Assembly (NCBI GenBank): GCA_039028615.1 | Contig: JBCCHT010000049.1 | Coordinates: 1-64,000, forward strand | Source of the DNA: Myxococcota bacterium | Lineage (GTDB): Bacteria > Myxococcota_A > Polyangia > Nannocystales > Nannocystaceae | Direction of reading: 5' to 3' | Length of the DNA stretch: 64,000 nucleotides | Part shown: positions 7,912 to 26,059 of the stretch, piece after piece | Layout of the letters: each line of letters begins with the position of its first letter | How positions within the stretch are numbered: the stretch's first letter is position 1 | Translations under genes and position numbers: made by a program | The notes under the pieces: generated by a model | The model's input: the letters and a program-made list of their open reading frames with translations, nothing else | What the model was told of the DNA's origin: nothing | Database searches by the model: none

Positions 7912-8208
7912 TCATCGTCGTTTCGATAGTCGAGCGGGGCTCATGGCTTGGTGAAACACGGCGAGCACCACGACCCGCTCGCCCTCGTCGACGAAGAACA
8001 CCGAATACGGGAAGGTCCGGACGACGGCGCGGCGGATGGTGTCCTCGACCACCGCATAGGCCCGCGGCTGTTGCTGGATCAGCAGCAGCGTGCGATCGAC
8101 CGCGTCGACGAATCGCCCGCCGAGGCCGGGCTCTTTGCTCTCGTACCAACGCCGAGCATCGTCGATGTCGTCGAATGCGGGCGCTCTGAGGACGAGAGCC
8201 GGGCTCAC
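7912..8208 (-). CDS. Type II toxin, RelE/ParE family
   Basis: AFDDIDDARRWYESKEPGLGGRF...RRAVVRTFPYSVFF...VVVLAVFHQAMSP pattern; overlaps the antitoxin stop by 4 nt. Confidence 0.88.
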   Translation of the reverse strand: MSPALVLRAPAFDDIDDARRWYESKEPGLGGRFVDAVDRTLLLIQQQPRAYAVVEDTIRRAVVRTFPYSVFFVDEGERVVVLAVFHQAMSPARLSKRR

Positions 8209-8417
8209 TTACCCGAGAGCCTTCGCCTCGCTTCGTCCCAGCCGATCACTGCGGTCGGGCTCGCCCGATGGTCCTGCAGGCGCTGGCGAAGTTCGGCTCG
8301 TTGTACATCCGAGATCGGAAGCTCGAAGCCGTCGTCGATGAGCGAGTCCCACAGCGTCTCGATGAGATCGAGTCGCTCGCCGGGCGCCAGCGCCAGTGCC
8401 TGCTCGGTCACGGTCAC
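8205..8417 (-). CDS. Addiction-module antitoxin (TIGR02574 / 'unstable antitoxin' type)
   Basis: ALALAPGERLDLIETLWDSL...QRAELRQRL...WDEARRRL pattern, directly upstream of the ParE-like toxin. Confidence 0.85.
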   Translation of the reverse strand: MTVTEQALALAPGERLDLIETLWDSLIDDGFELPISDVQRAELRQRLQDHRASPTAVIGWDEARRRLSGK

Positions 8418-13323: not shown

Positions 13324-13617
13324 CCGGCCCGTCGTTGGCGTGACGCTATCTCGTCGTCACGTGAAGTCGGTCTTCGTGCGAGCGCGCCGACCGCTGGATT
13401 CGGTCGTGTGCACGGCCATCGCGAACCGATGGTGTCACGATGGTCCCCTTTGATTGTTGAGAAGCATGTAGCCGCCGTCGCCGCCCCTTCAAGGAGGGGT
13501 CGAGCGAGGTGAAGTTCACTGCCCCTTTCGTCAGACCCGAGAGATCACGCACTCACAGTTCGATGGGCTTGTGAAACTATGCCGCCTCTGTTCCGAGACA
13601 AAGTGCGAATCAAGCCG

Positions 13618-16494
13618 ATGAAGCTACTGTTTCACTCGATCCTGGCGACGCTGGCCCTGGCCGCGTGTACTCCCAAGTCCACCACCGATGGGACCGACAC
13701 TCCCGGCGACGGGACGGTGCAGCAGGGTGATGCAGGCGCCGCGAAGGACGACTCGCCCGCGCTGGCGCTGGACTCCGCGGTCCGCACGGGCACGCTGGAC
13801 AACGGGCTGACCTACTACATCCGCAAGCACAACAAGCCCGAGAAGCGTGCGGCGCTGTGGCTCGCCGTCAACGCCGGGTCCGTGCTCGAGCAGGACGACC
13901 AAAAGGGCCTCGCTCACTTCGTCGAGCACATGGCCTTCAACGGAACGGAGCGCTTCGAGAAGAACACCATGATCGACTTCTTCGAGAAGTCGGGCATGGA
14001 CTTCGGCGCCGACGTCAACGCCTACACGTCGTTCGACGAGACGGTCTACATGCTTCAGGTGCCGACCGACGACGCCAAGCTGATGTCGACCGGCATGGAC
14101 GTGCTCGAGGACTGGGCGGGGGCGGTGAGCTTCACCCCCGAGGAGGTCGACAAGGAGCGCGGCGTCGTCATCGAGGAGTGGCGGCTGGGTCGTGGCGCCA
14201 GCCAGCGCGTGTTCGACAAGCAGTGGCCCGTGTTCTTGGCCGGCAGCAAGTACGCCGACCGCAAGCCCATCGGCGAGAAGAAGATCCTCGAGAACGCGCC
14301 CGTCGAGCGCCTCAAGGCGTTCTACACGGACTGGTACCGCCCCGATAACATGGCGGTGATCATCGTCGGCGACGTCGATCCCGCCACGATCGAAAAGGAC
14401 ATCCAGCAGCGCTTCGGCGACCTGAAGAACCCCGACGGGGCGCCCGAGCGCGTCGACATCGAGGTCCCGCTGCTCGACGAGACCCGCATCGACATCCAGA
14501 CCGACAAGGAGATGTCGATGACCCAGGTGACGGTGGCCATCAAGGGCCCCCGCACCCCCTACGAGACCGAGAACGACTACCGCGCCAAGCTCACCGAGGA
14601 GCTCTTCCACGGCATGCTCCGCGCCCGCTTCACCGAGATCGGCGAGCGGCCCGAGGCTCCCTTCGCGTTCTCGTTCTCGTTCACCAGCGCGATGGGGCGC
14701 TCGGTCGACGTGTTCCGGCTCTTCGCCGGGGCCAAGCCCGGCCAGGCCGAGGGCGCGCTCAAGACCCTGATGGTCGAGCTGGAGCGCGTGCGTCGGCACG
14801 GCTTCATCGCGTCCGAGTTCGAGCGGATCAAGGTCGAGCACATGCGTGACCTCGAGCGCTCGGTGGCCGAGGCCGACACCGTGCCCGGCCGCGCCTACTC
14901 CCGCGGCCTGGTCAGCCACTTCCTCGAGGGCAACACCATGATCAGCCGGGCCAACGACCTCGAGCTGGCCAAGAAGTACCTGCCCTCCATCACCCTCGAA
15001 GACGTCAACGCCGTCGCCGAGACCTGGACCAACCGCAAGGACCGCGTGCTCTCGGCCGCGGGCGCCTCGACCGACAAGATGCCCACCAAGAAGGGCTTGC
15101 TGGCGATGGTCGACGGCATCTCCATGCTGCCCGTGCAGCCCTGGGAGGACGGCGGCACCGGAGGCAGCCTCATGGCCAAGGCCCCCGAGGCGGGCAAGGT
15201 CGCCAAGAAAGAGAAGATCGAGGAGCTCGACGTCAGCGTGTGGACGCTGAGCAACGGCGCCACGGTGGTCATCAAGCCCACCGACTTCAAGAACGACGAG
15301 GTGCTCTTCACCGCGTTCAGCCCCGGCGGTCACTCGCTGGCCGACGACAAGCTCTTCGCGTCGGCCCAGTTCTCCGACGCGGTCGTGTCCGAGGCCGGCA
15401 TCGGGGACCACGACTCGAGCGAGGTCCGCAAGCTGCTCACGGGCAAGGTGGCCAACGTTCGCCCGTGGATCAACGAGCTCGAGGAGGGCCTGCGCGGCAG
15501 CGCGTCCCCGCAGGACCTCGAGACGCTAATGCAGCTGACCCACCTGTACTTCACCGCGCCCCGCAAGGATCAGAAGTCCTTCGACGCGTGGAAGGGGCAG
15601 ATGAACGCGTTCTTCAAGAACCGCGACCTCAACCCGCAGGCGGCGTTCTTCGACGAGATGTCCAAGGTCTCCACCAACGACCACCTGCGGCGTCAGCCCC
15701 CGTCGGTCGAGAAGATCGAGGCCGTCGACCTCGAGGCGGCCTACTCCTTCTACCAAGACCGCTTCGCGGACGCGGGTGACTTCACCTTCGTGTTCGTCGG
15801 CAACGTCGACGAGAGCCGGCTCGAGGAACTGTCGGCCACCTACCTCGCCTCGCTGCCCAGCAAGGGCCGCAAGGAGAAGTGGAAGGACGTCGGCGTCAAG
15901 CAGCCCAAGGGCATCAAGAAGGTCCGCGTCAACAAGGGCCAGGACCCCAAGAGCTTCGTGATGCTCAGCTTCCACGGCAAGGCCAAGTGGTCGCCCGAGG
16001 CCGAGGACGACATGGACATGCTCTCCGAGGCGCTCAGCATTCGCCTGCGCGAGATCCTCCGCGAGGACATGAGCGGCGTCTACGGTGTGTTCAGCAACGG
16101 CGGCATCTCGCGCCGACCCAAGCAGGAGTACCAGTTCTTCGTGGGCTTCGGCTGCTCGCCGGAGAACGCCGAGAAGCTGACCAAGGCCGTCTTCGAGCTG
16201 GTGGAGAAGGTCAAGAAGGACGGCATCGAGCCCGAGGTGGTCGACAAGCTCAAGGAGCAGCGTCGCCGCGGCCTCGAGACCGACAAGAAGGAAAACCGCT
16301 TCTGGCTGCGCCAGCTCTCCGAGCACTACCGCTACGGCACCGACCCGCGGAAGATCCTCGAGATGGAGAAGATGATCGACCGGGTCAACTCCGATCGCGT
16401 GGAGAAGGCGGCGAAGAAGTACCTCAAGAAGCAGTACATCGACGCCCTGCTGATGCCCGAGGCCGGGGCCGAGGCGGCCGCTCAGAAGAAGTAG
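13618..16494 (+). CDS. M16 (insulinase/PqqL-like) zinc protease, lipoprotein
   Basis: LALAAC lipobox; LDNGLTYY; inverted zinc motif GLAHFVEHMAFNG; NAYTSFDETVY; second half LSNGATV and LREILREDMSGVY. Confidence 0.93.
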   Translation: MKLLFHSILATLALAACTPKSTTDGTDTPGDGTVQQGDAGAAKDDSPALALDSAVRTGTLDNGLTYYIRKHNKPEKRAALWLAVNAGSVLEQDDQKGLAHFVEHMAFNGTERFEKNTMIDFFEKSGMDFGADVNAYTSFDETVYMLQVPTDDAKLMSTGMDVLEDWAGAVSFTPEEVDKERGVVIEEWRLGRGASQRVFDKQWPVFLAGSKYADRKPIGEKKILENAPVERLKAFYTDWYRPDNMAVIIVGDVDPATIEKDIQQRFGDLKNPDGAPERVDIEVPLLDETRIDIQTDKEMSMTQVTVAIKGPRTPYETENDYRAKLTEELFHGMLRARFTEIGERPEAPFAFSFSFTSAMGRSVDVFRLFAGAKPGQAEGALKTLMVELERVRRHGFIASEFERIKVEHMRDLERSVAEADTVPGRAYSRGLVSHFLEGNTMISRANDLELAKKYLPSITLEDVNAVAETWTNRKDRVLSAAGASTDKMPTKKGLLAMVDGISMLPVQPWEDGGTGGSLMAKAPEAGKVAKKEKIEELDVSVWTLSNGATVVIKPTDFKNDEVLFTAFSPGGHSLADDKLFASAQFSDAVVSEAGIGDHDSSEVRKLLTGKVANVRPWINELEEGLRGSASPQDLETLMQLTHLYFTAPRKDQKSFDAWKGQMNAFFKNRDLNPQAAFFDEMSKVSTNDHLRRQPPSVEKIEAVDLEAAYSFYQDRFADAGDFTFVFVGNVDESRLEELSATYLASLPSKGRKEKWKDVGVKQPKGIKKVRVNKGQDPKSFVMLSFHGKAKWSPEAEDDMDMLSEALSIRLREILREDMSGVYGVFSNGGISRRPKQEYQFFVGFGCSPENAEKLTKAVFELVEKVKKDGIEPEVVDKLKEQRRRGLETDKKENRFWLRQLSEHYRYGTDPRKILEMEKMIDRVNSDRVEKAAKKYLKKQYIDALLMPEAGAEAAAQKK

Positions 16495-16518: not shown

Positions 16519-16560
16519 CGGAGGGCTCGATGCCGCGCGCATCGGGCCCTTCGTTTTTTT
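16519..16560 (+). terminator. Rho-independent terminator of the M16 protease gene
   Basis: CGGAGGGCTCGATGC / GCATCGGGCCCTTCG stem (G-U pairs) followed by T7. Confidence 0.85.
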
Positions 16561-16645
16561 GCCCTCGGCAGTGATCGAAACTCGGGAGGCCCGGTCTACC
16601 CCTGCGAGCCCGACAAAAGGGCCCCTCACCGAGCAGGACCGGCCG

Positions 16646-17302
16646 ATGGCACAGTTTTCCCAGACAGTGGTGCACCCGAGCTTCGATGACGTCTCCGACG
16701 GCGACGTCGAGGGGGTGTGGAGCAGCCTCAAGGCCGCGGCCAAGGCGGCAGCGCCCGTGCTCAAAAAGCACGTCCCCGTGATGCTCCAAGCCGCGGGGTC
16801 CTCCGGTTTGCTCGGTCCCTACGGCGCGCTGGCGAGCGCGGTGCTGTCCGGGATGACGGGCGCGCCCAATCCCGCGCCGATGCGACCGGCCCTGCCGGGG
16901 GCGGCCACGAAGACCCCCGCCGTCAATGCACCCGCCGCTCTGCTAGCTCAGGCACTGACGCAGCAGCCGGTGCTGCAGCTGCTGGGCGCCGCGCTCGGAG
17001 GTGCGTCCGCCAAGCCGGCTGCCACCGTCGCTGCGGGCGGCAAGATCATTCCCGCGTCGTCCGTGTTCCAGCTGCTGGCCGCGCTCGCGAACGAAGCCGC
17101 CAAGGCGGCGCCCAAGCCCAGCGCGAAGGAGAGCCGAGACGCCGAGGCGCTCGCGCCCGGGCTGGATGGGGTCGCGACCCTGCTGGACCTGCTGCAACGA
17201 GACGGCGACGAGCCGAGCGATGCGCTCGTCGGCGAAGACGACGACTGGCTCGAGGACGACAGCAGCGCCTGGTACGGCGCCGAGCCCTTCGCCACTCCCT
17301 GA
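16646..17302 (+). CDS. Hypothetical protein (operon gene 1): short acidic leader, cationic amphipathic helix, Ala/Leu-rich body, acidic Trp-containing tail
   Basis: ATG 16646 after CAGGAC; FDDVSDGDVE-GVWSSLKAAAKAAAPVLKK...EDDDWLEDDSSAWYG. Confidence 0.7.
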   Translation: MAQFSQTVVHPSFDDVSDGDVEGVWSSLKAAAKAAAPVLKKHVPVMLQAAGSSGLLGPYGALASAVLSGMTGAPNPAPMRPALPGAATKTPAVNAPAALLAQALTQQPVLQLLGAALGGASAKPAATVAAGGKIIPASSVFQLLAALANEAAKAAPKPSAKESRDAEALAPGLDGVATLLDLLQRDGDEPSDALVGEDDDWLEDDSSAWYGAEPFATP

Positions 17303-17349
17303 ACGATTCACTGCCCGGGCCGCGACCGGCCCCGAAACGAGCACGAACC

Positions 17350-17817
17350 GTGGAACTCGACTCCCTGCTGGGGCAGGGGAGTGGGGCCCTTGCGGCCTCC
17401 GCCCTCCCCGACGCCCTCCTCCCTCTCCTCGAGCAACGGGGCATCGCGCCCGACAAGGCCCAGCTGCTGGCCCAGCTCTTTGCCGGCTCCCGCGACACGG
17501 CCACGTCCGAAGACACGCCGAGCGTCGAGTCCATGCGCCGACGCATCGCCCGACTCGAGTCGGTCAACGAGATGCTCCGAGACACCAACGACGCGCTCGC
17601 GGCCGCCCTGGGGGCCTGCGAGGTCTGCTGGGGCACCGACGACGACTGCGAGGCCTGCGAGGGCCATGGCACCCCCGGCTCGTCGCTTCCCGATCCCCGC
17701 CTGTTTTCCATCTTTGCCCTGCCGGCCCTGCGCCGCGTTCGGGCCGCCCGAAAACCCTCTGTTCATCGTGGGCATCGACGCCCCGTACCCCCAACCAAGA
17801 AAGACCACCAAAGGTAA
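17350..17817 (+). CDS. Hypothetical protein (operon gene 2): coiled coil plus four-Cys putative zinc-binding motif
   Basis: GTG 17350; MRRRIARLESVNEMLRDTNDALAAALG-ACEVCWGTDDDCEACEGHGTPG; stop 4 nt before the next ATG. Confidence 0.7.
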   Translation: MELDSLLGQGSGALAASALPDALLPLLEQRGIAPDKAQLLAQLFAGSRDTATSEDTPSVESMRRRIARLESVNEMLRDTNDALAAALGACEVCWGTDDDCEACEGHGTPGSSLPDPRLFSIFALPALRRVRAARKPSVHRGHRRPVPPTKKDHQR

Positions 17818-17821
17818 CGCC

Positions 17822-18442
17822 ATGCTGGATATCGAAGAAGTGAACCTGCTGCAGTACGCCGACGCTCCCGACGACGACGAAGCGATCATCGACTGGGACG
17901 ACGAGGCCATCATCGACTGGGACGACGAAGCGATCATCGACTGGGACGACGAGGCCATCATCGACTGGGACGACGAGAGCGCGGAGCGTCGTCGCCGAGG
18001 CCGAGGTCGCCGAAGCCGTCGCGGACCCGCCCGTGGCCGCGGCTATACCCGGCCCCGCGCGTCCAGCCGCCGCAGCGCGTCGCAGCGCGACGTTCAGCTC
18101 GCGCTGGGCCGAGTCGCCAAGGACATCCGCAAGAACGCCAGCTTCGCCCGCTCGGTCGACCGTCGCGTCACCGCGCTCGGCCGCAAGACCGCCAAGGAGC
18201 TGAAGAAGATCCAGGACGAGCTGCAGAACAACCAGCAGATGGCCCTGCTCACCACCATGCTCTCGAGCGGCAAGAAGACCTACGACATCGTCTCTTCCGA
18301 CGAGGACAACAAGCAGATCGTGCTCGACGAGGTCGAGGACAAGTTCTCGCAGCTGCTCCCGCTGCTGGCCAACAACAAGGGCGGCAAGGGGCTCTCCGAC
18401 AACCCCATGATGCTCATGCTGATGCTGGACGCCTTCAAGTAG
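17822..18442 (+). CDS. Hypothetical protein (operon gene 3): acidic repeat leader, Arg-rich tract, coiled coil, Met/Leu-rich C-terminus
   Basis: ATG 17822; (DDEAIIDW)x4-DDESAE-RRRRGRGRRSRRG...KELKKIQDELQNNQQ...NPMMLMLMLDAFK; strong GC3 bias. Confidence 0.8.
   Translation: MLDIEEVNLLQYADAPDDDEAIIDWDDEAIIDWDDEAIIDWDDEAIIDWDDESAERRRRGRGRRSRRGPARGRGYTRPRASSRRSASQRDVQLALGRVAKDIRKNASFARSVDRRVTALGRKTAKELKKIQDELQNNQQMALLTTMLSSGKKTYDIVSSDEDNKQIVLDEVEDKFSQLLPLLANNKGGKGLSDNPMMLMLMLDAFK
17873..17977 (+). repeat. 24-nt coding tandem repeat, 4 full copies plus a partial (DDEAIIDW)
   Basis: GACGACGAAGCGATCATCGACTGG alternates with GACGACGAGGCCATCATCGACTGG, forming an exact 48-nt unit present twice. Confidence 0.95.
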
Positions 18443-18451
18443 GAGTGAGTC

Positions 18452-18730
18452 ATGAACCTGTTGTTCCTACAAACGATGCGCCTGCAGAAGATGGGCCTGT
18501 CGACCTCCGAGGCGATCAAGACCGCCTACCTCGGCAAGATGATCGCGGGCGACGACGTCGGCATGTCCTTCTTCGTCACCGAGACCCTCGGCCGACGAGC
18601 CCTCGAAGACGACAAACCAAGCGTAGAGCCGCGCGACGAGCAGCCGCGCGACGAAGAAGTGCCCGACGGCAGCACCACGCCGGACGGCGGAACCGGAGCC
18701 GAGCCGATCGGAGTGGTCGGTCGCGACTGA
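18452..18730 (+). CDS. Small hypothetical protein (operon gene 4)
   Basis: AGGAG Shine-Dalgarno at 18441-18445 overlapping the previous stop; hydrophobic/helical N-half and acidic disordered tail. Confidence 0.7.
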   Translation: MNLLFLQTMRLQKMGLSTSEAIKTAYLGKMIAGDDVGMSFFVTETLGRRALEDDKPSVEPRDEQPRDEEVPDGSTTPDGGTGAEPIGVVGRD

Positions 18731-18751
18731 CCGCCGGACTGGACGCGAGAC

Positions 18752-21700
18752 ATGACCATGGACCCGGGCCTCCGAGAGCTCCTGCACGGTAACGCGGACG
18801 AAGACGTCGCCGTCCTCGTTCGTCGCCGACCAGGCACGTCGCTCCCTGCGGGGGTCCGGGTCGTCGCTCAGCTGGGCGACATCGCGAGCGTCCGACTGCC
18901 TCGACGTCGACTCGTGGAGACCCACGGGTCGGAGGCGGTCGCGAGCATGAAACCACCACGACCGGTGGCGTGGGAGCGCAGCCCCGACGAAGGGCCGCAC
19001 CCGTCGAAGTCCCGGACGCACGCCCGGCCTCGTCACCCCGGTACGTCGCAGACCGGGGCAGGGGTCGTCGTTGCGCTGGCAGACTGGGGCCTGGACCCCT
19101 GGTTGCCCAACTTTCGCCATCCCGACGGGAGCACGCGCCTTCGCTGGCTGTGGAACCAGCGCGAGCCCTGGGATGGTCACAATCGCTACCAGCGGGGCCG
19201 CGTGTACTCGCGCGAGGAGATCGACGCGGCGCTCCGGGGGGAGCCGGGCTTCGAGCAGCTGCGCGAGGTGGCCACCCTCGGCGGGCCCGAGGGCAACCAT
19301 GGCACCCACGTCGCCGACATTGCGGCGGGCCGAGCCGTAGCGGGGGCTGGCGGGGTCGCGCCCGAGGCCGAGCTCGTGTTCGTGCAGATGGGCCCCTCCG
19401 CTCGCCACCCGCAGCAAGATTTTGGCGACTCGGTCAGCGTGGTCGAGGCGGTGCACTTCATGCTCGACCGCACCGAGGGTCGCCCCTGCGTCATCAACCT
19501 GAGCATGGGTCGGCAGGGCGGAGGCCACGACGGGCAGAGCCCGGCCGAGCAGGCCCTCGATGCGGCAGCGCGCTCGCGCCCGGGCGTATGCATCGTACAG
19601 AGCGCGGGCAACTACCTCGACCTGGGGCACCACGCATCGGGCTGGCTCGAGCACGAGCCGCATGACCTCGACTGGCAGGTGCGGCGCGAGGACGACACGC
19701 GCTCGGAGCTCGAGGTCTGGTACTCGGGCCGCGATCGCTTCGGGCTGGAGCTGCGAGCGCCCGATGGTCGCGTCGCGGGTCGCTTTGGCCTGGGAGAGCA
19801 CGGGCCGATCCGCGAAGGGTCGCGCGTGGTCGGTCGCGCCTACCACCGCGCGTTCGATCCCAACAACGGCGATCACCACATCGACATCTTTCTCGAGCCC
19901 AATGCGACCCGGGGGGCGTGGCGCGTCACGCTTTTTGGCGAGCAGATCGAGTCGGGGCGCTTCCACGCGTGGATCGAGCGCGAGCCCGGCTCGCGGAGGC
20001 TCCAGAGTCGCTTCCGTCGGGCGCAAGCCAACCCGCGCGCCACCATCGGCACCATCGCCAATGGTCGCGAGACCATCGTGGTTGGGGCTTACGAGGCCAT
20101 GCCGGACGCGATCGAGCCCGCCGGGTTCAGCAGCGCGGGGCCGACTCGTGACGGTCGACCCAAGCCCGACCTGGTGGCGCCCGGCGTGGACCAGTGGGCC
20201 TCGCGGTCCAATCCGAAGAATGCTGGCCAGGCGCTCGTGTCCAAGTTCGGCACCAGCATGGCCGCGCCGCACGTGGCGGGGACGGCCGCCCTGATGCTGC
20301 AAGCCAACCCGACGCTCGATGCCCGACAGATCCGCCGGATCCTCGTGGACACCACCCGTCATCGCGAGGCCGCGGCCGGTCGACGTCTGCGCATGGGCGC
20401 GGGCGCGCTCGATTCTGCCGCGGCCGTCGCGGTCGCTCGCGACCTCGCCCCCCAAGGAGCCACCATGCCCGGAGTTTCCCTGCACCCCTCGTTGCCTCTC
20501 GCGCTCGCGGCCCCTCATCGTGCGCTGCCGGTCGAGCTCGAGGAAGACGACGCTCCGCCGCCGCGGCTGCGCATCGCCGATCTGCCCGAGGCCGAGCCCG
20601 CCTTCACCGCGAAGCTCGATCCCGACGACCTGCCCTACGCCATCCTGCAGCAGCTACCGGAACAGCAGCCCTCGGTGCGCGTGGTCGCCCATCACGAAGA
20701 GGGCACGCTGCGCTTGTTCCTCGTGGCACCGCAGGCTACCCGTGGCGTGCTGATCGAGGTCGACCTGAAGCAGGTCGCCGCTCGAGTCGCTCGCATCGGC
20801 CGGGCCGCGGTCGCTCCGATTCGGCGCTACCTCAGCCGCAGCCGCAAGGGGGGCTCATCGATCTTCAAGTCGTTGCCGGGGCGGTTCGTTCGGGTCTGGC
20901 TGGGGCCGGGCAAGGCCGATCGCAGCTTCGCCGTCTTCGACCTCGTGCGCGTGGTCCTCGGCCTGGCGAAGGGCAGCTACGCCGGGTTCCAGCCGGTCGA
21001 GGCCAACCTCGATCTCGGCGCCACCGGGGCGGCGATGCTCTATCGCGGCAAGACCCTCGACAAGGCGGCCGCGTTCGCCCTGGGCGGCGAGGAAATCGGG
21101 TCCTTCGAGCTCGAGTCGGCGCAGGTTCGGCAGCAGGTCTTGCAAGAGTCCGAGGGCGACGCGATCTGGGTGACGGTGTTTCGAGGCGAGGGCACGCTGG
21201 CCGTCGCGATCGCCTCGAACGAGGACTCCACGCGGGGGCTGGTGGTCCGCATCGGTGTTCGCTCGCTGATGGAGCGCATCGGCAAGGCCCTGCGGTGGCT
21301 GGGCAAGGTCGGCCGCACGTTGCTCGAAAAACTGCGCGCGCTGGTCGAGTCGGCGGGGCGCGTGCTGGCCAAGGTCAAGGACGCGCTGCTGCGCTTGAAG
21401 CTGCCCGGGGGCAAGGGCGGGGGTGGCTTCCTCGAGTTCGATCTCGAGCTGGCGCTGCCCCGGTTGGCGCTCAGCGGCTTCGACCTGCGCGGGCTGTTGC
21501 CCACCGGGTTCCGCATCGGTGACCGGGGCGGAAGCTTGTTCTCGCTGCCGAAGATCCCGTGGCGGCGAATCGACCTGGGGAGCTTCGACTTGGGGGGCCT
21601 CGGCCTGCGGGGGGACTTTCTGCGGGGGCTGTCGGACTACCTGCGTGGGCTCGGCCTCGGTCGCGGGGGCGGCGGGTCGTTTCAGTGGCCCAACGTGCGG

Positions 21701-24700
21701 CTGTTCGCGGTGGACCTCGACCGTTGGATCTTCGAGTTGTCGCTCGATCTGTCGGGGCTGTGGCCGGGCGGAGGCAAGCGCGAGACCGGCTTCACCTTCG
21801 ACCTCGGCGCGATCCTGCGACGCATCGCGGGCCGGAGTGCGCAGCTGGCCGCCCGCATCGGCGCGCTGGTGAAAAAGGCGATCGACAAGATCAAACAGCG
21901 CTGCTCGGTCGGCCTCGACGGGATCTTGCGCGTGCTCCTGGGGGCGAAGCCCGAGCCCGACGGCGCGCGGGTGGGCATCGATCTCAAGCGCTTGTTCGAC
22001 GGCGCGGACTTGGAAGATCTGATCCCGGTGGAGCTGCACCTCGCCCACTCGATGGCGACGCTGAGCTACGGCCAGGCCAGCCCTCCGGCGAAGTTCCGCG
22101 GCGGTCCCCCGGTCATCGTGCGCATGCCCGGGGAGGACGCGGGCGAGCCCGAGCATCAGACCACGATGAAGGTGCCGCGTGCGCTGGGGCGTCGACTGAG
22201 GGTCCCCGCCGACACCAAGGTCGCGCTGCAGGTGTTCTCCGGCGACACGCACCTCGACGTGTTCGGTCGGCTGAGCTCGGGGCAAGGCCTGTCGCTGTCG
22301 CTGCCCTTGGTCCAGTGGAAATCGGGGACGGCGACCCGGCTGTTCGAGCTGACCCCGCGCCAGTCGCAGTGGCTCGACGTCATTCCCGATCTCGAGGGCC
22401 TGTATGTCGGCTGGGACGGCACCACGGGAGACGCCGCTCCGGTCTTCGTGCGCTACCACTGGGGCACGATCCTCTCCATCGCGGGCGGCGAGACCGACCT
22501 GGCCGCGCTCGTGCCCGACGAGTTTCGGATCGAGCGAAAGACCTTGAGCCTCGTCGTGGCCGGCAAGAAGCGGGAGATCAAGAAGCTTCCGCTCGGGGGC
22601 ATCGCGCGGCCCGTAGCCAAGCTGCCCAAGGTCGTTCGCGATGCGCTGTCGTCGGTGGGTATCACCTCCAAGCACATCGTGCGGGTGGATGCGGCGCGCG
22701 GGCAGATCGAGGAGGACGGCGGGGCGACGGCACTGAAGCTCCGTGCGGCGGTCTATCGCCCCACGACGGAGGGCTACACGGGAGCGGAGCTGAAGCTCGA
22801 TGTCGACTTCGCGTCGCTCGTCGGCAAGTTCCTGGGCAATCGCACCGTGCAGAAGGTTCGGGCCAAGGCTTCGTCGCTGAAGCGGCCGCCGCTGAGCGTT
22901 CACGTGGCCGACGGCATGGCCCAGGTGCAGTACCGCTACGCCAAGAAGGGTGAGACGGCCGAGCTGTCGGCGAGCTGGAGCCTCGGGCGCCTGGTTACGA
23001 TTTTGCTCGAGTACGACGAGATCCTCGAGCATCCGACCCGGCTGGCCCCCGACAAGATCGTTGGGTCGCTCTCCAATGGCAAGTGGACGGTGTCCTTCCA
23101 GGGCGGCACGACCAAGGCCAACCCCGCCGGGATGTCGCTGCCGCTGGGCAGCACGCCGGGGCTGACCGAGGCGGTGGGCTTGGTGCTCAGCCCCGAGGTC
23201 CTCGATCGCAGCACGCTGTACCTGAACATCGACAAGTCCGATCTGGCCGAGCGGGCGGCCACGGCGGTGGCCCAGTGGGAACCGCTGCGGCTCGCCGATG
23301 CGGTCATCGTGACCAAGGGCCGTGATGCGTCCAAGGCGTTCGGCGTGAGCGTGAGCCTCGAGCCCGGCGCGGTGCTGGACCTCATCTCCGCCATCCCCCT
23401 GGGGTTTTGGATCAAGGCGGCGCGCAAGTTCTTCGAGTTCGCCAAGAACCCGGAGGAGGCCGTCGACAGCGTGTTCTACGGCTCCATGGGCGTCTACGAG
23501 GCGCTGCGGGCGATCTGGTCGGGCGACGTGGATTTCTCCAGCCTGAGCGGCGGCGACATCGGGCTGCTGGCCATCACCGCCCTCGATGCCGACATGGAGT
23601 ACCTGGTCGCGGTGGCGCGGACGACCCGACGCCTGCGCGAGACCGGCTTCATCACCAAGGCCGACCTGAAGGACGCCAAGCAGAACGCGGCGGACTACGC
23701 CAAGCACGACCAGGAAAAGATGCGGGAGTTCATCGCCCGCGTGGCCTCGATGTCCGACAAGCAGCTGCGCCGCCTCGGTCGCGTGCGCAAGGAGATCGGC
23801 AACGACGATGTGTTCAACCAGCTGGTGACGTGGTCGGATAGCCTGCCTCCGCAGGTGGTGCCGAAGCTGCAAGCCATCGACAAGGCGCTCGAGCAGATGG
23901 GCTGGGTCGCCGACTTCTCCCACTTGGCCGATGGCTTCGATCCCGCGGTCGCGGCGGATCGCGTGGGCGACATGCTGGTGGTGGCCGAGCGGATCGAGGC
24001 GGCCTCCACCGCGGCCGAGCTCCGCAAGGTGCTCCAGGAGGCGGGGTTCGGTCCGAAGGAGGCCTTGCGACGGGCACGAGAGGCCTACGACACGCGTCGG
24101 GGCAAAGGGCCCACGCCGAAGGCGGACCCGCTCGATCGCTACGCGGAGCTGAACGCCGACCAGCTGCTCGAGCTGCTCAGGGAGGGCTTCGTCTCCATCC
24201 CCAAGCCCCCCGACGGCATCGAGATCGTCGTCCTCGACTCCGCCCACGAGCAGGCGGTGGCCCAGCTGCTGGTGAGCAAGCTCGAAGAGGGCAGCGCCAC
24301 GGGCCCAGGCGGGAAGCCGGGCAAAGGCAAGGGCAAGGGCCTCGGACCCAAAGACGGCACGCCCGTGCAGGCGGCGGCGTTGCTGGCTCAGATTCGCTTC
24401 AACGATCGCAAAGCCAAGGCGAGAGAACTCGCCAAGGACTCACGGCTGACCGCGCGACAGATCTTGATCGCGCAGTACTGGAACCCGCGCTGGTACAACG
24501 AGCACGGGGTTGGCCCCAAGGACTTCGACGCGCCGAACCTGCACGTGCAATCGGGTTCCTATGCGGTGTTCATGGCGGAGTGGCAGTCCATGGCGGGCGT
24601 CCGGCCCACCGACGGCATCGCGGGCGACGACACGGTGGCGCGGCTCCGCCAGCTCAAAGAGGGGCTGAAGGGCACCAAGGGCAAGGGCCCGGGCAAGAAG

Positions 24701-25426
24701 GGCGAGGGCAAGCCGGACGAGTTCAACGGCAAGAAGGCGGCGCTGAAGCGCAAGCCGGGCTCGCTCATGAAGATCAAGTCCAAGATCATCATGGCCGCGG
24801 TGAAATGGGACCCCGCCTCGAAGCGCCCGGTGCTGAACGGAGACATGGGCGAAGCCTCGAAGTGGCAGAAGTTCGTGCTGCCCCAGCGTGGGTTCGCGCC
24901 GAAGGTCTCCGAGGTCGAGCTGTACACCCGTGATGCGACCGTGCCCGGCGGGCCGAAGACGATCTTCTTCCAGCTTCGTTTCCGCCTCGTGTTCCTGGCC
25001 ACCACGGACAACGGCGAGCGGATCCCCTGGGGGCGAGACATTCGAATCGGTCGCTTCGTGTTCCTGCCGAACATCCACGGGGAGGGCAACCACCAGATGG
25101 TTCGCCAGGAGACCCTGAAGCTGAGCCCGGCCTTCCACCGCGCCATCGACTTTTCCGACTTGAACGACCCCATTCGCGACACCACCGTTCGCTTCCACAT
25201 GAGCGACGGACCTGTGGAGTGGACGATCGACAACCTCGTGCTGCTCGATACGGGCGAGGACAAAGGCGGCCGCTACCACGACTTCACCGTCGACGTCACA
25301 CCGACGAAGCTGAAGAGCGGGCTCATGACCCTGTGGGATCACGTAACGGAAGGCTATCGGGTGATGCAGCTCGGTCAGGTGAGCCCCGCGGTGCGGCTGA
25401 AGGTCTACGAGCCCAAGCCCAAATGA
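18752..25426 (+). CDS. 2224-aa protein: N-terminal S8 subtilase (CspA-like, with insert) fused to about 1650 aa of unknown function with a late peptidoglycan-binding-like motif
   Basis: Triad D111 (ALADWGLD), H183 (NHGTHVADIAAG), S502 (GTSMAAPHVAG); SAGN oxyanion; FRHPDGSTRLRWLWNQ; FSSAGPTRDGRPKPDLVAPG; later AEWQSMAGVRPTDGIAGDDTVARL. No signal peptide seen. Confidence 0.85.
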   Translation: MTMDPGLRELLHGNADEDVAVLVRRRPGTSLPAGVRVVAQLGDIASVRLPRRRLVETHGSEAVASMKPPRPVAWERSPDEGPHPSKSRTHARPRHPGTSQTGAGVVVALADWGLDPWLPNFRHPDGSTRLRWLWNQREPWDGHNRYQRGRVYSREEIDAALRGEPGFEQLREVATLGGPEGNHGTHVADIAAGRAVAGAGGVAPEAELVFVQMGPSARHPQQDFGDSVSVVEAVHFMLDRTEGRPCVINLSMGRQGGGHDGQSPAEQALDAAARSRPGVCIVQSAGNYLDLGHHASGWLEHEPHDLDWQVRREDDTRSELEVWYSGRDRFGLELRAPDGRVAGRFGLGEHGPIREGSRVVGRAYHRAFDPNNGDHHIDIFLEPNATRGAWRVTLFGEQIESGRFHAWIEREPGSRRLQSRFRRAQANPRATIGTIANGRETIVVGAYEAMPDAIEPAGFSSAGPTRDGRPKPDLVAPGVDQWASRSNPKNAGQALVSKFGTSMAAPHVAGTAALMLQANPTLDARQIRRILVDTTRHREAAAGRRLRMGAGALDSAAAVAVARDLAPQGATMPGVSLHPSLPLALAAPHRALPVELEEDDAPPPRLRIADLPEAEPAFTAKLDPDDLPYAILQQLPEQQPSVRVVAHHEEGTLRLFLVAPQATRGVLIEVDLKQVAARVARIGRAAVAPIRRYLSRSRKGGSSIFKSLPGRFVRVWLGPGKADRSFAVFDLVRVVLGLAKGSYAGFQPVEANLDLGATGAAMLYRGKTLDKAAAFALGGEEIGSFELESAQVRQQVLQESEGDAIWVTVFRGEGTLAVAIASNEDSTRGLVVRIGVRSLMERIGKALRWLGKVGRTLLEKLRALVESAGRVLAKVKDALLRLKLPGGKGGGGFLEFDLELALPRLALSGFDLRGLLPTGFRIGDRGGSLFSLPKIPWRRIDLGSFDLGGLGLRGDFLRGLSDYLRGLGLGRGGGGSFQWPNVRLFAVDLDRWIFELSLDLSGLWPGGGKRETGFTFDLGAILRRIAGRSAQLAARIGALVKKAIDKIKQRCSVGLDGILRVLLGAKPEPDGARVGIDLKRLFDGADLEDLIPVELHLAHSMATLSYGQASPPAKFRGGPPVIVRMPGEDAGEPEHQTTMKVPRALGRRLRVPADTKVALQVFSGDTHLDVFGRLSSGQGLSLSLPLVQWKSGTATRLFELTPRQSQWLDVIPDLEGLYVGWDGTTGDAAPVFVRYHWGTILSIAGGETDLAALVPDEFRIERKTLSLVVAGKKREIKKLPLGGIARPVAKLPKVVRDALSSVGITSKHIVRVDAARGQIEEDGGATALKLRAAVYRPTTEGYTGAELKLDVDFASLVGKFLGNRTVQKVRAKASSLKRPPLSVHVADGMAQVQYRYAKKGETAELSASWSLGRLVTILLEYDEILEHPTRLAPDKIVGSLSNGKWTVSFQGGTTKANPAGMSLPLGSTPGLTEAVGLVLSPEVLDRSTLYLNIDKSDLAERAATAVAQWEPLRLADAVIVTKGRDASKAFGVSVSLEPGAVLDLISAIPLGFWIKAARKFFEFAKNPEEAVDSVFYGSMGVYEALRAIWSGDVDFSSLSGGDIGLLAITALDADMEYLVAVARTTRRLRETGFITKADLKDAKQNAADYAKHDQEKMREFIARVASMSDKQLRRLGRVRKEIGNDDVFNQLVTWSDSLPPQVVPKLQAIDKALEQMGWVADFSHLADGFDPAVAADRVGDMLVVAERIEAASTAAELRKVLQEAGFGPKEALRRAREAYDTRRGKGPTPKADPLDRYAELNADQLLELLREGFVSIPKPPDGIEIVVLDSAHEQAVAQLLVSKLEEGSATGPGGKPGKGKGKGLGPKDGTPVQAAALLAQIRFNDRKAKARELAKDSRLTARQILIAQYWNPRWYNEHGVGPKDFDAPNLHVQSGSYAVFMAEWQSMAGVRPTDGIAGDDTVARLRQLKEGLKGTKGKGPGKKGEGKPDEFNGKKAALKRKPGSLMKIKSKIIMAAVKWDPASKRPVLNGDMGEASKWQKFVLPQRGFAPKVSEVELYTRDATVPGGPKTIFFQLRFRLVFLATTDNGERIPWGRDIRIGRFVFLPNIHGEGNHQMVRQETLKLSPAFHRAIDFSDLNDPIRDTTVRFHMSDGPVEWTIDNLVLLDTGEDKGGRYHDFTVDVTPTKLKSGLMTLWDHVTEGYRVMQLGQVSPAVRLKVYEPKPK

Positions 25427-25489: not shown

Positions 25490-26059
25490 ATGCCCGAACC
25501 GCAGCGGGTCAAGATCGCGTTCATCGGCAGTCACGGCGTCGGCAAGACCACGCTGTGCTACGGCTTGGCCGCGCGGCTCAAGGCCCGCGACGTCTCGCTC
25601 GAGGTCGTGCACGAGGTCGCTCGCCAGTGCCCGCTGCCCATCAATGAGCAGACGGGCGTGGCTTCGCAGTCGTGGATCTTGCACACGCAGGTGGCGGCCG
25701 AGATCCTCGCGGCCGAGCGCTATCCCGCGGTGGTCTGCGACCGCAGCGTGCTCGACAACTACGTCTACATGCTGCTGGCGGCGGGGCGGCAGCGGGCGCT
25801 CGACGGCATGGTCGACGCGTGGATGGACACCTACGACTTGCTGGTGCTGGTGCCGATCATCGACGAGCCGAGCCCCGATGGATTGCGGGCCACCGACCCG
25901 AGCTTTCAGCGGGCGGTGGAGGACGGCGTGCGTCGTGAACTGGCGCGCCGCGAGATCGAGGCGATGGAGCTCGATCCGAGCAATCGAGACGGCTGGCTGT
26001 CGCGGGTGGAGACCGAGGTCATGACCCGCCTCGCGCCGCCGCAGCTGCCGCTGCTGTAA
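25490..26059 (+). CDS. P-loop ATPase/kinase, AAA_28 (NadR-like) family
   Basis: KIAFIGSHGVGKTT Walker A; EVAR; VVCDRSVLDNYVY; YDLLVLVP...DGLR. Confidence 0.8.
   Translation: MPEPQRVKIAFIGSHGVGKTTLCYGLAARLKARDVSLEVVHEVARQCPLPINEQTGVASQSWILHTQVAAEILAAERYPAVVCDRSVLDNYVYMLLAAGRQRALDGMVDAWMDTYDLLVLVPIIDEPSPDGLRATDPSFQRAVEDGVRRELARREIEAMELDPSNRDGWLSRVETEVMTRLAPPQLPLL

Follow-up and report, generated by a model that had tools for sequence, protein, structure and literature searches.

What do four small genes of no recognizable family have to do with the giant protease gene that follows them? The question is raised by a 64,000-nucleotide stretch of DNA (the window) from a bacterium of the Nannocystaceae (Myxococcota bacterium, GenBank assembly GCA_039028615.1, contig JBCCHT010000049.1, positions 1 to 64,000 of the forward strand), which lies on contig C49 of a 12.27-Mb genome. 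Five co-oriented open reading frames (ORFs), here called G1 to G5, occupy positions 16646-25426 of its + strand, and a first-pass annotation, made from the letters alone, had proposed that they encode a protease-matured multi-protein assembly or toxin-delivery system. We find that the five genes are a real, conserved and mobile system based on four unannotated protein families, and apparently an undescribed one. It is new as a gene system; the broad class to which it belongs (polymorphic effectors with a processing protease) is already known, and the mechanism that we put forward for it is a proposal.

A five-gene cassette conserved in fixed order

The ORFs were re-found at the same coordinates as in the first-pass annotation, separated by gaps of 47, 4, 9 and 21 nt. 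G1 (16646..17302, 218 amino acids, aa) is a divergent, shortened member of an unnamed family; G2 (17350..17817, 155 aa, with a GTG start) is the best marker of the system; G3 (17822..18442) has 206 aa and G4 (18452..18730) has 92 aa; and G5 (18752..25426, 2224 aa) joins an S8 protease to a cargo. GC content at third codon positions (GC3) is of the coding type for all five (0.81-0.94), including the full length of G5 and its 1,653-aa tail, and chance or shadow ORFs are ruled out by GC3 and conservation together.

Conservation was traced from G2. Twenty-two proteins found by word search yielded a profile that, run against a cluster database at 50% identity, matched 1,293 clusters at E<=0.001, including 1,113 at E<=1e-10. 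In a scan of metagenomes 319 stretches were confirmed; the best 80 of the 319 by likeness to the window's G2, near-duplicates included, were taken as loci together with L001 and L085, and profiles for G1, G3, G4 and the protease were built from 11-18 seed loci. G1 lies upstream of G2 in 49 of the 49 loci having at least 700 nt there, and downstream of G2, where loci are long enough, G3 follows in 50/51, G4 in 30/33 and the protease in 26/26. A hand count with the seed loci left out gave 33/33 for G1, 34/35 for G3, 15/18 for G4 and 15/15 for the S8 protease. The one G3 miss is L032, yet a G3-like gene is present there by eye, and the three loci without a G4 match fall within a single divergent clade. 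The genes G1-G4 often have overlapping stop and start codons. The co-occurrence that the first-pass annotation had predicted is thus found, in the fixed order G1-G2-G3-G4 and with an S8 protease carrying variable cargo, and the homologues of the small genes map to no characterized system among those tested.

Across 18 loci, G1, G2, G3 and the protease have correlated pairwise distances (Mantel rho 0.42-0.82, highest for G1 and the protease); kinship alone yields such a correlation, which therefore shows co-inheritance and not binding. By this measure the scaffold genes and the protease co-diverge, whereas the cargo, as described below, is shuffled. Two departures from the common pattern were noted among the loci: in the clade of L014, L025, L039, L049 and L087, the beta-hairpin is missing from G3, and the place of G4 is taken by a helical protein of 200 aa that looks different and that the G4 profile misses, and in L093 (G340:C40) G1 and the protease each seem to be split over two frames, either as broken genes or through assembly error.

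Mobility and distribution

In three genomes of the same genus (G346, G348 and G349) the genes that flank the cassette adjoin, with about 90-260 nt between them, and so the five genes are exactly the unit gained or lost; the inserted segment contains them and nothing else. Each of the remaining two same-genus genomes is without a match to one flank. The downstream flank is an AAA_28 gene (25490-26059), and the upstream one (13579-16494) is a gene that we take, by its motif, to encode an M16-type peptidase. The latter ends before its intrinsic terminator (16519..16560, + strand), which forms the left cassette boundary. This terminator had been read correctly in the first-pass annotation: a 15-pair stem with a T tail is present, the longest of 6 terminator-like sites, a number not above that in shuffles (mean 5.2). 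From the terminator to G1 there are only 85 nt (16561-16645), which contain neither a sigma-70-like site nor a regulator gene. No paralogue of the five genes was found in their own genome, which has one unrelated S8 gene, on contig C35.

Complete cassettes are carried on plasmids of Cupriavidus oxalaticus X32 and Gemmatirosa kalamazoonensis KBS708, members of two phyla, the latter with a divergent G4. Further cassettes were found in a Rubrivivax metagenome-assembled genome and in genomes G340, G350, G309 and G626 (three of the family and one other), and G2 by itself was identified in Paraburkholderia and Longimicrobium. The cassette occurs in 0/5 genomes of the same genus, 3/72 of the family and 1/300 of the phylum, and in 1/400 of a second phylum sample taken around the Rubrivivax genome; these frequencies omit weak, coiled-coil-only G2 matches (G173, G333, nine genomes), of which G173 alone was rechecked. 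A pattern scan of genome contigs confirmed at least one locus, with thin coverage of named genomes. On the Cupriavidus plasmid, a truncated second G1 and, after it, a cargo that bears the shared domain described below point away from the full cassette (L086:7393-11486, minus strand), and look like a duplicated and deleted cassette copy.

A phage origin was considered and rejected: the 30 pattern matches on viral contigs gave 0 confirmed loci, no relative was found in phage records, and the window's G1-G4 have no match in PHROGs, where their homologues give weak coiled-coil or glycine-rich matches only.

A Csp-type protease

The N-terminal part of G5 (18752..20446, + strand, aa 1-565) comprises a prodomain and a Csp-type S8 protease with the Csp insertion, and has no signal peptide; the protease N-termini are acidic and polar. 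As the first-pass annotation had stated, the S8 triad is intact: D111, H183 and S502 (codons at 19082, 19298 and 20255) are conserved, like the oxyanion residue N287, in at least 24 of 25 aligned proteases, and the window's S8 domain is 40-47% identical to those of other cassettes. G5 matches PF00082 (2e-35) and the CspBA model (8e-41), the latter at 139.6 bits against a cut-off of 1250; the CspC model gives 89.5 bits (cut-off 675) and the PatA model 21.9 bits (cut-off 421). Its nearest solved relatives are clostridial germination proteases, matched at 5e-39 continuously over aa 94-527 (PDB 4i0w, 9t7m and 9pr8). Of the protease parallels drawn earlier, that with the clostridial Csp type stands, while those with LanP and PatA/PatG fall away. 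Among PADLOC models of anti-phage systems, G5 is matched by generic subtilase models only and G1-G4 by none.

Four unannotated small proteins

No match to G1-G4 was found in Pfam or NCBIfam at E<=0.1, except one between G3 and ComGA (E 0.073, 12 bits; cut-off 300), and none to any family in PHROGs or PADLOC; an atlas search placed G2 and G3 in unnamed clusters only. The earlier impression that these proteins belong to no nameable family is borne out, none of these collections giving anything credible. It had also been remarked that they lack an evident Sec or Tat signal, and by a simple hydropathy and motif rule (not SignalP) this extends to all four families, with no Sec-like or Tat signal in 28 G1, 139 G2, 37 G3 and 24 G4 sequences.

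G1 begins with an acidic leader (aa 1-22) that ends in Glu, followed by an amphipathic helix, a glycine-rich hydrophobic stretch, a Pro/Ala linker, a helix-hairpin-helix core and an acidic tail; the window's copy is matched by a profile of 16 homologues at 1e-11. Cleavage at Glu22 would expose a new N-terminus formed by the amphipathic helix of aa 23-40 (16712..16765, + strand). The Glu at the leader boundary is present in 21/24 homologues, and in 21/24 the next 18 aa rank within the top 10% of hydrophobic moment of their own protein; the net charge of this helix is +3 in the window and -3 to +4 in the homologues. We take the helix to resemble viral penetration peptides and antimicrobial peptides. 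One G1 homologue matches Bacteriocin_IIc weakly (E 0.001), and another (L048:1488-2756) shares one ORF with a phage-type lysozyme (PF00959). A structural model of a fuller homologue (from L028) gave a best fold match of Z 5.7, over one helix only, and no match to viral structures at E<=0.001, which is not evidence of a new fold.

In G3, an acidic leader (aa 1-55), again ending in Glu, precedes an Arg-rich stretch, a long helix (aa 88-149) that is probably a coiled coil, and hydrophobic Leu/Met-rich helices at the C-terminus. The family profile matches the window's copy at 2e-25, and its model has a pLDDT of 92-95 over aa 91-140; the model matches no PDB fold, a blank that is not evidence of a new one. 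The last acid of the leader is Glu in 36/37 sequences, though Glu makes up 49% of leader acids (binomial 1e-10; about 1e-5 when collapsed to 20 clusters), so that a Glu at the boundary is conserved in G3 as in G1. An abrupt change from acidic to strongly basic had been claimed for both proteins. It holds for G3 alone, which passes from a net -25 to +11; what follows the leader of G1 is the amphipathic helix of net +3. The G3 leader includes four tandem 24-nt copies (17873..17968, + strand) encoding an 8-aa acidic repeat, of which the closest relative, P0006, has two copies.

G2 has short N-terminal helices, a coiled coil and the motif LGACxxC(W/F)GxDxxCxxCxGxGxPG. The four-Cys motif of the first-pass annotation corresponds to cysteines 90, 93, 100 and 103, all four invariant in 139 aligned sequences, and is probably a zinc site; against PDB sequences the G2 profile gives coiled-coil noise only.

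G4 consists of an N-terminal helical hairpin and an acidic tail, to which homologues add PASTA repeats (in 7) or a coiled coil. The membership of the window's copy in this family is weak but real: scored against a profile built without it, its score is reached by 0/1,000 shuffles (hhalign p 9e-4), and in the locus survey it falls below detection by the G4 profile at E<=0.001. A hydropathy peak of at least 1.6 is found in 14/24 G4 homologues, the window's being lower. No holin family in Pfam or PHROGs matches the cassette proteins, holins being diverse.

Polymorphic cargo

The C-terminal cargo of G5 (20465..25426, + strand, 1,653 aa) has no known domain; it includes two segments of mild hydrophobicity, around aa 1530 and 1603. 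Among 21 homologous protease ORFs, 15 carry a domain that acts on or binds the wall (GH25, GH46, Amidase_2, phage lysozyme, DUF2272, PG_binding_1 or OmpA), two carry phospholipase D and 6 are without a recognized domain; a recognized wall hydrolase is found in 8/21 (several of these ORFs are cut by contig ends), and the window's cassette has none. Separate downstream cargo genes encode DUF2272, patatin, tyrosinase and LodA proteins. Cargo blocks are swapped among loci, and the C-terminus of G5, earlier suspected to be variable cargo, is indeed polymorphic across these ORFs. No match to a SleC-named family was found among the cargos. In one locus (L096:7486-10555, G309:C209) the protease stands alone; after it come a tyrosinase and an oxidase of the LodA type, each of which begins with an acidic leader.

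Twenty-four cargo proteins, 19 of which are the profile seeds, share an unnamed domain that is about 170 aa long and has invariant D, R and H residues. Some copies are embedded in protease fusions and others open separate cargo genes (L009:14689-15228, L028:11523-12053); the domain is absent from the window's genome and has no solved relative. It is a candidate loading or wall-binding adaptor; it matches CHAP weakly (2/19, E 0.004), and one might guess at an inactive NlpC/P60-like fold.

The cargo of L050 recurs in genome G360 behind an eCIS_core domain, the domain (PF13699) of proteins of extracellular contractile injection systems (eCIS); PF13699 itself was found neither in G5 nor in the 21 homologous protease ORFs. 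The window's genome (G000) has four eCIS_core proteins, all on contigs other than the window's, and a TcA-like gene adjoining an SpvB/TcB gene (contigs for both sets: C2, C9, C15, C23, C22).

A candidate internal translation start

An in-frame ATG (Met572), 70 aa past the catalytic Ser, is preceded at five bases by the Shine-Dalgarno word AAGGAG, the two together spanning 20454..20467 (+ strand). This internal start, which was not part of the earlier note, can in principle make the cargo a separate protein. When a Shine-Dalgarno-like word with an in-frame ATG was sought 55-110 aa past the catalytic Ser, it was present in 12/22 protease ORFs, against 23/430 equal windows elsewhere in the same ORFs; leaving out the ORF that prompted the search, the count is 11/21; by clusters at 65% identity it is 9/15, and in held-out or later loci it is 3/5. 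Other loci have one gene for the protease and another for the cargo. The recurrence of the start together with this separation suggests that the giant fusion probably gives two products, protease-cargo and cargo alone.

Genomic context and a second subtype

A BTAD, LuxR-type or sigma-54/response regulator gene lies at most 4 genes upstream in 19/25 other long loci; in L009 a DUF3467 gene (8066-8350) is directly upstream of G1. The window's copy is a reduced member of the system: its G1 and G4 are short, and it lacks PASTA repeats, the shared cargo domain and a regulator. The gene that follows its cargo is the ancestral AAA_28 neighbour.

The G1 profile also revealed a second subtype: L115 (G368:C97), L116 (G349:C14) and L117-L118 (G361:C95). 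A TcA-like gene (PF18276, frames of 3,392-3,456 aa) stands directly upstream of G1 in 3/3 of these loci, with no SpvB/TcB match on the same contig. G1 is followed by a G2-like coiled-coil gene, up to three paralogous G3-like genes and a G4-like gene, and the same Csp-type S8 and cargo genes are present in 2/3 loci, the third contig ending before them. Relationship to the main families is weakly indicated by hhalign for the G2-like (p about 1e-4) and G3-like (2e-4) proteins, and by eye for G4.

Comparison with known systems

The cassette is a member of none of the systems that it most resembles. With S8-PTS (PMC9424270; 10.1101/2025.07.24.666436) it shares an operonic S8 protease and polymorphic cargo, here mostly fused. 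S8-PTS as described there have three parts, Sec signal peptides, a BetaH domain, mostly nuclease toxins, immunity genes and Gram-positive hosts; by contrast, the cassette has no signal peptides, a Csp-type protease, four extra conserved genes and mostly envelope-attacking cargo. General scans of the cargos gave no Pfam match named BetaH (a BetaH-specific profile was not run), and as to immunity, no such gene directly follows the cargo in the window and a small gene of no known family does so in 3/13 complete loci.

The clostridial Csp/pro-SleC system (PMC3567191) has the same S8 subtype, insertion included, and likewise couples a protease to peptidoglycan hydrolases. The cassette differs in scores far under the CspBA and CspC cut-offs, in a single active protease with no pseudoprotease partner, in hosts outside Bacillota and in four unrelated partner genes. 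Like eCIS, including Photorhabdus virulence cassettes (PMC3482391), it combines an N-terminal peptidase with swappable payloads, OmpA-type ones among them, often without immunity genes, and one payload is common to a cassette and an eCIS_core (DUF4157) protein; however, there is no tube, sheath, baseplate or ATPase gene in or beside it, and its peptidase is a serine S8 and not the eCIS metallopeptidase. Type 10 secretion and lysis cassettes (PMC10847048) resemble it as small regulator-led operons with wall hydrolases, release of leaderless cargo and, in one subtype, TcA-like neighbours, whereas the cassette has no holin or spanin match and always has the protease but not always a hydrolase (undetected hydrolases are possible).

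Streptomyces umbrella particles (PMC11062931) are, as is proposed for the cassette, multi-protein antibacterial particles with coiled coils and a polymorphic C-terminus, and the lectins of their variable surface-binding arms have a counterpart in PASTA. Unlike them, it has no twin-arginine motif in G1-G4, its protease N-termini are acidic, no Pfam match for ALF repeats or an inactive trypsin-like adaptor was found, and its S8 has the catalytic triad. Cyanobactin (PatA/PatG) and lantibiotic (LanP) clusters differ in that no modifying enzymes lie within the insertion. No description of the cassette was found in the literature, supplements lying outside the search; Additional File 1 of PMC3482391, for instance, might list such fusions.

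Proposed mechanism and its alternatives

We hypothesize that the genes are a mobile cassette for polymorphic effectors, equipped with a maturation protease and with a four-protein, envelope-penetrating delivery scaffold of its own that is released by lysis, a reading that we regard as having an even chance of being right. The operon would be turned on by a dedicated regulator, as the linkage suggests, probably in a subpopulation of cells. All five proteins would be made in the cytoplasm, the cargo both fused to the protease and, if the conserved internal start is used, alone. G1-G4 may co-assemble through short Leu/Met-rich helices and coiled coils, with zinc held by the G2 cysteines, and the acidic leaders would cage the membrane-active parts until cleavage. 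The conserved motif suggests that the Csp-type protease cuts after Glu, which would free the amphipathic helix and glycine-rich hairpin of G1 and the Arg-rich stretch of G3. The assembly would be released when the producer lyses and would attach to the envelope of a target by way of the Arg-rich stretch and of PASTA, OmpA or peptidoglycan-binding domains; G1 would then breach the target membrane, and wall hydrolases, phospholipases or long eCIS-type payloads, to judge by the cargos of homologues, would enter. The S8-Ntox35 toxin, in which an S8 protease uncages a cationic amphipathic helix (10.1101/2025.07.24.666436), offers a precedent for the proposed roles of G1 and G3.

A more specific version, which we advance tentatively as somewhat doubtful, is that the cassette represents a new class of delivery machine: a tail-less particle, independent of secretion systems, that would be made of four unannotated proteins, matured by a Glu-cutting Csp-type protease and supplied from the payload pool of contractile injection systems. 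The internal start would determine how much of the cargo is free and how much is bound to the protease, and one subtype would partner an orphan TcA-like protein. An uncaged G1 helix with an Arg-rich arm presumably resembles the arming of the penetration proteins of non-enveloped viruses.

Several observations weigh against the delivery reading. Binding among G1-G4 and cleavage by S502 are steps that we infer, the locus counts include near-duplicates, and hydrophobic peaks stay below transmembrane level in all four window proteins (maximum 1.34). The window's cargo, searched in six segments, has no Pfam match and no homologue, and lacks the shared 170-aa domain. CspB tolerates varied P1 residues (PMC3567191), which would make specificity for Glu a novel property. 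Of the acidic linkers within cargos, 23/38 terminate in Glu, not above a Glu share of 0.65, and the Glu rule finds no support in them. Nor do the loci encode a recognizable export route; in the flanks of 26 loci no other family occurs in more than 4, and none is recognizably a secretion, ATPase or holin family; the small gene after the cargo that might confer immunity is found in few loci, as given above. The G2-like protein of the second subtype is without the four cysteines, and a short orphan G2 (L095:11485-11811, G309:C146) has no G1, G3 or protease nearby.

The main competing explanation, which we think unlikely, makes the cassette a protease-gated module for self-lysis and export, the equivalent, outside phages, of holin-endolysin-spanin (type 10 secretion) modules: cleaved G1 would permeabilize the inner membrane of the producer, G3 and G4 would act on the outer layers, and fused hydrolases would open the wall, so that leaderless LodA, tyrosinase, lipases and TcA-like proteins escape. 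The lack of signal peptides, the regulators upstream in most other long loci, the scarcity of immunity candidates, the phage-type lysozyme inside one G1 and the TcA-like neighbours of the related subtype all fit this explanation, as does the release of Tc toxins by lysis cassettes in Yersinia (PMC10847048). It is held back by the small share of protease ORFs with a recognized wall hydrolase (8/21, none in the window) and by the want of a holin or spanin family match; multiple hydrolases per polyprotein, swapped between loci, would also fit an arms race better. Rather less probable, in our judgement, is that there is no stable particle and the protease matures its neighbours separately, G1 and G3 acting independently as membrane-active peptides or by forming pores, G2 and G4 serving as chaperone and anchor, and the cargo freed as enzymes. 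Such independence would be compatible with monomer models of low pTM (0.41 and 0.47), with binding among G1-G4 being a supposition, and with the resemblance of cleaved G1 to a stand-alone bacteriocin-type helix, through the one Bacteriocin_IIc match; the strict retention of four genes in order in different phyla, where the stop codon of one gene often overlaps the start codon of the next, and the long coiled coils of G2 and G3 suit a stoichiometric assembly.

The kinship of the protease with clostridial germination proteases raises the further idea of a switch, like that of Csp and SleC, by which cells leave dormancy or remodel their wall, and in which the protease would activate hydrolases in a resting cell and G1-G4 would be a coat. 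Clostridial Csp proteases activate the cortex hydrolase SleC by removing its propeptide (PMC3567191), and most recognized cargos of the cassette act on or bind peptidoglycan. Even so we consider this idea very improbable, as the cassette is patchy and mobile, is absent from 5 of 5 same-genus genomes, is present on plasmids, and has cargos that include phospholipases, LodA and an eCIS-type payload. Hosts such as Cupriavidus and Paraburkholderia, moreover, are not known to form spores.

Implications

The G2 family numbers more than 1,000 clusters, yet the four scaffold families and the 170-aa domain that most cargos share have had no name, no family model and no matching fold. The proposed mechanism predicts that G1 is cut after Glu22 and G3 after Glu55, and that a second product begins at Met572. 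Should the self-lysis explanation be true, the cassette would be a non-phage lysis module. If instead the delivery reading is true, it would add a further route of interbacterial or inter-kingdom attack beside the type VI secretion system, eCIS, umbrella particles and S8-PTS, and would explain how large leaderless hydrolases, phospholipases and oxidases of soil bacteria reach their target.

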